Shown here piece by piece: positions 55,935 through 56,378 of a DNA stretch of 64,000 bases; the first letter of the stretch is position 1, and the number at the start of each line of letters is the position of its first letter. The stretch lies in the sequence record PQ571307. One strand, given 5' to 3'. Source of the DNA: Shigella phage SF1-1. The position numbers and the translations under genes were made by a program. The notes under the pieces were generated by a model. It searched no databases, had not been told where the DNA came from, and worked only from the letters and a program-made list of their open reading frames with translations.

Positions 55935-56378
55935 ATGCAAAACATCCAAAACATCAAACTGACTTGGCCCGAAGCTAAAGAAGCAATGAAGGAAGGTAGA
56001 CGTGTTGAGCACCGCCATTTTTGTGGTGGCGAATGGTTTGAGATGCGAGATGGTGTTATTCTCGACGAACAAGGTTATAATATGGAAACTTGGTTCAGAG
56101 GGGAAGCTTGGCAGGAAGAGGGTTGGTCTGTAATTGAAAAAGAAGACAGTAAGGAAGAAGGCGTGTTGTCTAATGTAGAACGCAAGATGAGGGAAACAAA
56201 GATACCTGCTTTGGATTTTGTATACCTGGAAGAACTTGTGGCAGCATCTTTTGTAGCAGGAAACCTTTGGAATACACCTGTTAGCCGACTGGAGAACCAA
56301 AATAACCCGTCTGCTCGTAATCACAAGCTTTATAAGGGTAAAGGTCACAACAAATTAAAGAAAGGAAAGAAGAAATGA
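55935..56378 (+). CDS. DUF2829-like protein (Tad2-like candidate) with Lys-rich tail
   Basis: N-terminal LTWPEAKEAMKEGRRVEHR ... GGEWF and later EGWSV resemble the F-x-EA-x-x-A-x-K-x-G-K-K-V-R-R ... W pattern of DUF2829 as I recall it. Confidence 0.35.
   Translation: MQNIQNIKLTWPEAKEAMKEGRRVEHRHFCGGEWFEMRDGVILDEQGYNMETWFRGEAWQEEGWSVIEKEDSKEEGVLSNVERKMRETKIPALDFVYLEELVAASFVAGNLWNTPVSRLENQNNPSARNHKLYKGKGHNKLKKGKKK

Follow-up and report, generated by a model that had tools for sequence, protein, structure and literature searches.

A compact Tad2-fold domain with a conserved polybasic tail at the head of a transcription unit in Shigella phage SF1-1

Introduction

What is encoded by the first gene of the second plus-strand block in Shigella phage SF1-1? 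The stretch analysed here (64,000 nucleotides of record PQ571307, henceforth the window) carries at 55935..56378 (+) an open reading frame (ORF) with an ATG start, whose product has 147 amino acids and 17.2 kDa. It is present in the ORF list and by direct reading of the sequence, exactly as in the original prediction. That prediction described a DUF2829-like protein of the Tad2 family and proposed the sequestration of Thoeris signalling nucleotides.

In terms of structure, we found that residues ~8-68 form a compact domain with a fold homologous to the phage sponge Tad2 (DUF2829 superfamily), and that this domain belongs to a distinct "mini" clade. In terms of function, the likeliest role is early counter-defence or host takeover via sequestration, with the protein acting as an early-made, oligomeric small-molecule binder with a polyanion-tethering tail. 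We put this role forward tentatively, as a reading that may well be wrong.

Results

Fold and remote homology of the N-terminal domain

The mini Tad2-fold domain spans residues 8-68 (55956..56138, +). It is acidic, with an isoelectric point of 4.8, a value also found for the N-terminal 68 residues. The AlphaFold2 model reaches a predicted local distance difference test (pLDDT) score of 90-97 over residues 10-70 and was reproduced with a second alignment. It is composed of a helix at 11-19, strands at 23-26, 35-38, 41-43 and 64-67, and a short helix at 58-61. This is the Tad2 fold, with helix alpha1 and an antiparallel sheet, and it can be superimposed on the solved Tad2 structures.

The top PDB match in Foldseek is chain E of SPO1 Tad2 (8wje_E; probability 0.98, template modelling (TM) score 0.62), with an E-value (E) of 0.18, which is not significant. 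SPO1 Tad2 chains occupy six of the eight top PDB ranks. Matches in BFVD include proteins of 60-63 amino acids already called DUF2829 or Tad2-like in UniProt.

The sequence profiles point the same way. When 1.84 billion representatives were searched with a profile built from 22 orthologues, 190 proteins were retrieved at E<=1e-3, almost all of them aligned to residues ~6-68 only. Many are stand-alone ORFs of 59-70 amino acids, corresponding to phrog_3474, and this PHROG matches residues 7-68 with an E of 5.1e-30. When the domain profile (172 sequences) was compared with 12 published Tad2 sequences by HHalign, the local alignment had a probability of 94.3% (P ~1e-7) and the global one 91.8% over 63 columns. 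The word-indexed protein searches returned close orthologues or fragments only; in the second, long sequences of the query alignment dominated the result.

Traces of the Pfam family are also visible in the relatives. Sub-threshold matches to PF11195 (Tad2-like) occur in 21 of 148 clade representatives, the best at E 2.9e-4. One relative with 48% identity to the domain of the window (P0026) aligns with PF11195 over its full length at 18.6 bits. Close clade members reach 18.6-18.8 bits at most, the gathering cut-off being 25 bits.

Departures from canonical Tad2

Several results weigh against a Tad2-like sponge. The hidden Markov model (HMM) of PF11195 gave no match at E<=10, either to the full protein or to residues 1-70. 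In the same run the positive control SPO1 Tad2, for which the supplementary sequence of 10.1101/2023.05.01.538930 was used, reached 85.8 bits (E 3e-24). The comparison with the DUF2829 profile, suggested as a check in the original prediction, thus yielded nothing significant, an outcome that the prediction itself had named as counting against it. Searches of NCBIfam and PDB sequences, with single sequences and profiles and with the whole protein or the N-terminal domain, had no significant match either. The sole single-sequence PDB match, CutA at E 0.08, was judged to be noise.

Ten residues of SPO1 Tad2 touch 3'cADPR or its waters: W25, N26, I63, T65, D67, H71, W73, S76, T78 and D79. According to HHalign just two of the ten are kept, W73 as W53 and I63 as I42. 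Among the replaced contacts, W25/N26 correspond to H28/F29, S76 to R55, T78 to E57 and D79 to A58. The motif GWNGK reads H-R-H-F-C in the window protein, and SQTD reads R-G-E-A. Neither GWNG nor SQTD is present in any of the 172 clade sequences.

The global HHalign alignment further reveals a deletion of 24 residues relative to SPO1 Tad2 residues 39-62, which make up the beta2-beta3 insertion. In Tad2 the insertion contributes helix alpha2 to the dimer interface. It also forms the cyclic-dinucleotide pocket of HgmTad2, a protein that was purified with cGG bound to it. A tetramer and any pocket in the mini clade are therefore hypothetical. The conserved histidine and two glutamates described below could be structural and not ligand-binding. 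Finally, the neighbouring genes all fall in PHROGs of unknown function and give no guilt by association.

Taken with the fold and the HHalign results, the protein belongs with Tad2 at the superfamily level while failing the standard Pfam test. The DUF2829-like N-terminus of the original prediction survives, then, as remote homology and fold, and not as a Pfam HMM match.

The clade has a signature of its own. In place of GWNGK and SQTDxLAEDW we found H-x-[YFH]-F-x3-E and E-x-G-Y ... W-[FY]-R ... G-W. Over 151 non-orthologous clade representatives, the most conserved residues are E33 (98%), G21 (97%), A14 (95%) and F29 (94%), followed by E45 and G47 (92% each), H26 and W64 (89% each) and, at a lower level, W53 (66%). 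The window protein has the full mini-Tad2 signature (A14, G21, H26, F29, E33, E45, G47 and W64) and is in this respect a regular member of the clade.

The HHalign alignment places H26, F29 and E33 in the beta1-beta2 loop, and E45, G47, Y48, W53 and R55 in the loop preceding the last strand. In SPO1 Tad2, W25, N26, W73 and D79 of the same loops touch the ligand. From this we infer that the mini clade may retain a pocket at the Tad2 site for glycocyclic ADP-ribose (gcADPR), with different chemistry.

These results also bear on a bona fide Tad2, that is a tetrameric sponge for Thoeris gcADPR (3'cADPR) or His-ADPR (histidine-ADP-ribose). The shared fold with the solved Tad2 proteins, an early-promoter position like that of known sponges and the sequence diversity of the Tad2 family speak for it. 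Against it stand the lack of a PF11195 match beside the 85.8 bits of SPO1 Tad2, the replacement of W25 and N26 (GWNGK) and of S76, T78 and D79 (SQTD), and the missing alpha2 insertion. Moreover, the clade motifs have no relevant counterpart in the portions of the published Tad2 homologue tables that were accessible. With contact motifs and insertion gone, a canonical gcADPR sponge is quite improbable. The Thoeris-nucleotide sequestration of the original prediction is not a justified transfer, since the protein lacks the motifs GWNGK and W-x-x-SQTD as well as the beta2-beta3 insertion and has no PF11195 match. TadIV-1, also considered, is unrelated to the window protein.

Distribution of the mini-Tad2 clade

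At 50% identity, the members of the mini-Tad2 clade fall into at least 190 clusters. They are found in enterobacterial phages of the rV5/phAPEC8-like, T4-like, T5-like (pre-early region) and Felix-O1-like groups. About 70 of 170 clade representatives are stand-alone, tail-less domains of 59-80 amino acids.

Two relatives have an informative genomic position. In Seafire, a T5-like Salmonella phage, the homologue of 65 amino acids (3501-3698 of the retrieved locus L007, 8569-8766 of the record) lies inside the terminal repeat predicted by PhageTerm (1-9592). As in T5, this repeat is the first-step-transfer, pre-early region. In KPV15, a T4-like Klebsiella phage, the homologue is found in a region of small ORFs between nrdH and gp55. 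Both positions are consistent with immediate-early accessory functions.

Some variations of the domain architecture were found. One protein of 175 amino acids (P0043) contains a natural tandem duplication of the mini domain in a single chain, which hints at self-association and proves nothing. Four others (P0099, P0111, P0113 and P0118) are fusions with a SEC-C zinc-binding motif at the end. In general, the N-terminal domain occurs joined to many unrelated C-terminal extensions. Since separate clade members end independently in SEC-C (CxCGSGxKxKxCC) or in other polybasic runs, a basic C-terminal appendage is a recurrent partner of the domain.

Linker, helix and polybasic tail

Beyond the domain, the linker (residues 69-92; 56139..56210, +) is variable, charged and acidic, with indels and low conservation among orthologues and a pLDDT of 47-63. 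Next comes a conserved amphipathic "D[FY]xxLE" helix (residues 93-106, LDFVYLEELVAASF; 56211..56252, +), seen as a helix at 95-107 in both models. The conserved C-terminal peptide, TPVSR..NQNxPSARNHKLYKGKGHNKLKKGKKK, covers residues 114-147 (56274..56375, +). Its polybasic core at residues 128-147 (56316-56375, +) is predicted to be disordered. The Lys-rich tail noted in the original prediction is real, with ten K/R and no acidic residue among the last 20, a net charge of +10.

In both AlphaFold2 models the C-terminal half is flexible (pLDDT ~50-70), with helices at ~76/80-87 and 95-107 and a disordered tail. A second run with more C-terminal sequences still gave no confident C-terminal half.

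Conservation within the protein is highest in the tail, the reverse of the pattern to be expected. From PVSR onwards, the peptide is essentially invariant in the 22 orthologues, whose N-terminal domains are 63-98% identical and whose linkers have indels. Four more distant proteins from Klebsiella myoviruses of ~140-150 kb and from metagenomes (P0022, P0023, P0029 and P0038) have an unrelated middle and keep both D[FY]xxLE and KG[KR]GHN[KR]L[KQ]K[GR]KKK. D94, L98 and E99 are invariant even in these.

The tail codons vary synonymously between loci (GGT/GGC/GGA, CAC/CAT, AAC/AAT, TTA/CTG/CTT and AAA/AAG) with the amino acids fixed, and in one locus no downstream gene overlaps the tail end. The constraint is thus on the peptide, and not on a ribosome-binding site or RNA element. 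The polybasic C-terminal peptide is under strong purifying selection.

Searches with the tail found no relative in Pfam or PDB. In tblastn the low-complexity filter masked the polybasic part, and only residues 1-14 of the tail aligned. No convincing case of the tail module on another N-terminal domain was found, the candidates (P0171-P0174) being fragments from contigs of 1-5 kb.

A motif-level resemblance was seen with ArfA, whose segment KKGKGSYMRKGKH, verified in the ArfA sequence, sits in the 30S mRNA channel. The two have in common a KGKG core, then a polybasic [RK]KGK run, in a disordered C-terminal region. They differ in that this is low-complexity sequence and the remainder of the protein is unrelated. 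BLASTP gave no alignment at E<=100, and phmmer retrieved no ArfA chain from PDB, whether the query was the tail or the entire protein. We leave the likeness as a speculative analogy and not as evidence of relationship.

In the main rival reading, a tail of this kind could be the effector itself. The protein would then be an early host-takeover factor whose tail and D[FY]xxLE helix bind DNA, RNA, the ribosome, an anionic membrane or an acidic host protein, and the domain would be a mere oligomerisation or solubility scaffold that binds no small molecule. The conservation of the tail, also next to an unrelated middle, and its synonymous variation argue for such a factor, as do the SEC-C or other polybasic C-termini of separate clade members, the joining of the domain to many unrelated extensions in the manner of a generic module, the loss of the canonical ligand residues and the ArfA motif.

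Nevertheless, with ~70 of 170 representatives being tail-less stand-alone domains, some function must reside in the domain itself. A mere scaffold would be unlikely to keep near-invariant polar residues such as H26, E33 and E45. The tail has no similarity to any Pfam family or PDB chain, the BLASTP comparison with ArfA was empty, and the tail module was not found on other N-terminal domains. On balance we regard the tail as the effector as rather unlikely, with enough in its favour to be taken seriously.

Promoter and transcription unit

The gene is promoter-proximal in a host-RNA-polymerase (sigma70) transcription unit of a phAPEC8-like myovirus. A sigma70-type promoter at 55877..55904 (+) was identified by a consensus scan, by its conservation in five orthologous loci and by the independent annotation of phage ASO2A, whose authors placed a promoter at the same position. 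It contains TTGACA (55877-55882), a spacer of 16 nucleotides and TAAGAT (55899-55904), with ten of 12 positions equal to the consensus. A TG at 55896-55897 makes it an extended -10 (TGtTAAGAT, 55896-55904). The distance from the promoter to the ATG is 31 nucleotides, and a Shine-Dalgarno sequence AAGGAG, read from the sequence, is present at 55922-55927 (+), 7 nucleotides 5' of the ATG.

The -35 hexamer, TGnTAAGAT and AGGAG are unchanged in the five orthologous loci, one of them from a divergent metagenomic relative, with differences in the spacer and flanks. The promoter that the original prediction placed at the start of this transcription unit is borne out.

As for the strand organisation, greedy ORF mapping divides the window into three blocks: plus-strand genes at 84-23520, minus-strand genes at 23590-55820 and, starting at 55935 and running up to the last position of the window, plus-strand genes again. 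The gene thus heads this second plus-strand block, as had been proposed. It is separated from the minus arm by a divergent intergenic region of 114 bp. The same organisation is seen in a distant relative (L005), where the gene is again the first past a divergent intergenic region and the opposite arm ends in the same AAA ATPase.

The 114-bp region also contains two weaker promoter-like sites on the opposite strand (55846-55901, -), TTAACA-17-AATACT and TTGATC-16-TATCAT. They are consistent with a divergent early promoter pair.

The next gene of the operon (56375..56524, +), with 49 amino acids and a match to phrog_2381, comes from the ORF list and the PHROG comparison. Its start overlaps the stop of our gene (ATGA), and the same gene order is found in relatives.

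The +10 disordered tail alone would also suit a virion-packaged protein, co-injected and delivered with the genome with its tail bound to phage DNA, and DNA-associated injected proteins are a general precedent. Here the sigma70 early-type promoter and the location among small non-structural ORFs, well away from the structural modules, argue against packaging and make it very improbable.

Orthologues and neighbourhood

Over the 3 kb around the gene, identity is 98.7% with Escherichia phage vB_EcoM_DE16 and 98.5% with phAPEC8, both myoviruses of ~150 kb in the genus Phapecoctavirus (Stephanstirmvirinae). The orthologue in phAPEC8 is the hypothetical protein YP_007348609; its locus number, phAPEC8_00241, is interpolated from neighbouring annotations and unverified. 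The protein has a full-length match to phrog_22208 (E 2.8e-102), and at least 80% of it is carried by 70 phage records. No paralogues were found within the window.

The orthologues of the relatives are all labelled "hypothetical protein", with the sole exception of LR597654. The label "tRNA methyltransferase" in LR597654.1 (phAPEC8_ev052; L002 2007-2441) is unsupported by Pfam, NCBIfam and PDB and probably a mis-annotation.

The region consists of small ORFs, is rich in cassettes and differs by indels even between close relatives. A comparison of 55227-56781 of the window with a related locus (L001, 3553-4044 and 5052-5375) reveals that the block around the gene is hyperplastic. ASO2A, phAPEC8 and P3322 have an extra gene of 163 amino acids in the minus arm and a DUF7247 gene of 107 amino acids after the ORF of 48/49 amino acids; neither is in the window. 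In the divergent arm, the counterparts of 55227-55514 (-) and 55527-55820 (-) in a relative carry Phage_tudor (PF24144) and DUF7325.

One relative of 56 amino acids on an 85-kb contig (P0170) is a frameshifted allele, with ~43 identical residues, after which it continues in the +1 frame, the frame of window ORF 56002-56133. The frameshift may be a true inactivating mutation or may stem from an assembly error in this one genome.

Discussion

Proposed function

A counter-defence role is plausible but non-canonical on the present sequence comparisons. Early expression is inferred from the conserved sigma70 promoter, the position as first gene (also in the distant relative L005) and the homologues in pre-early or small-ORF regions. 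With altered pocket chemistry, published Tad2 homologues together act as inhibitors of Thoeris types I, II and IV, of CBASS and of Pycsar (10.1101/2025.08.24.671296), which makes an oligomeric small-molecule binder the most economical mechanism.

In such a mechanism the protein would be produced at the onset of infection, and the mini-Tad2 domain would form oligomers via helix alpha1, in the manner of Tad2. The equivalent inter-subunit pocket would bind a small ligand, probably derived from a nucleotide, and its specificity would differ from those of canonical Tad2 for gcADPR, His-ADPR or cyclic nucleotides. The +10 tail would act as a tether, its partner being either a polyanion (an anionic membrane, the ribosome or nucleic acid) or an acidic protein of the host. 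Our hypothesis is an anti-defence sponge, to which we assign no specificity.

A bolder version is that the mini-Tad2 clade is a new branch of sponges catching an immune or regulatory molecule not yet linked to Tad2. In phAPEC8-like phages the polybasic tail would tether it to nucleic acid, the ribosome or the membrane, as a localised sponge or as a bifunctional blocker of a polyanion-binding host factor. We consider this version doubtful. In the part of the literature accessible to us, no localised or bifunctional sponge is described for any sponge family.

Significance

Among the phage sponges for immune signals, no family is more widespread or functionally more plastic than Tad2. A compact sister clade, widely distributed, with what may be a re-made pocket, invisible to the Pfam model and located in early or pre-early regions of several major coliphage groups, is an obvious place to seek new sponge specificities or as yet undescribed messengers of defence systems. 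The conserved polybasic tail is an unexplained add-on. Furthermore, phAPEC8-like phages are common therapy candidates, which makes it useful in practice to know their counter-defence genes. Should the protein bind nothing, the Tad2 fold would have been reused for non-sponge functions, and caution would be due against anti-Thoeris annotation by fold alone.

Comparison with known systems

What is known is the Tad2/DUF2829 fold, and some relatives of 60 amino acids are already named DUF2829 in UniProt. Compared with those portions of the Tad2 literature that we could consult, three features are new: the clade has a pocket signature of its own, it lacks the canonical motifs, and in our protein the domain is fused to an invariant polybasic tail.

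In terms of C-terminal appendages, the closest parallel is SEC-C (PF02810), the C-terminal zinc-binding basic tail of SecA. At least four clade members end in SEC-C at the position of the tail. Both segments are short, Gly/Lys-rich and C-terminal, and follow a variable linker (GSGKKYKKCC in SEC-C, GKGHNKLKKGKKK in the window protein). The window tail differs in having no Cys or His ligand set and no PF02810 match, so the likeness is positional and compositional only. With no Cys and no Pfam match, the tail was ruled out as a SEC-C motif.

Tad2 itself (SPO1 gp34.65, 8SME/8WJE; HgmTad2/AcrIIA7, 8KBI; ModTad2, 9EIB) is likewise small, phage-encoded and early, to judge in the case of our protein from the promoter. 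Equivalent residues of SPO1 Tad2 and the window protein are A10/A14, G17/G21, W73/W53 and W85/W64, and both Tad2 and the mini clade are frequently fused to other segments. They differ in domain size, ~62 residues in the mini clade against ~75-100 in Tad2. The linker, helix and invariant polybasic tail of the window protein have no counterpart in the part of the Tad2 literature covered here.

The nearest known proteins are the "mini DUF2829" ORFs of ~60 amino acids in phrog_3474, none of known function, such as those of Shigella phage KPS64 (A0A482JJB6), virus sp. ctML55 (A0A8S5RI74), Seafire (gp017) and KPV15 (APD20446). They stand alone and lack both the D[FY]xxLE helix and the polybasic tail. 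They belong to the same clade as the N-terminal domain, with 32-58% identity, TM-scores of ~0.74-0.94 and the same signature residues, and they also sit among small early or pre-early genes.
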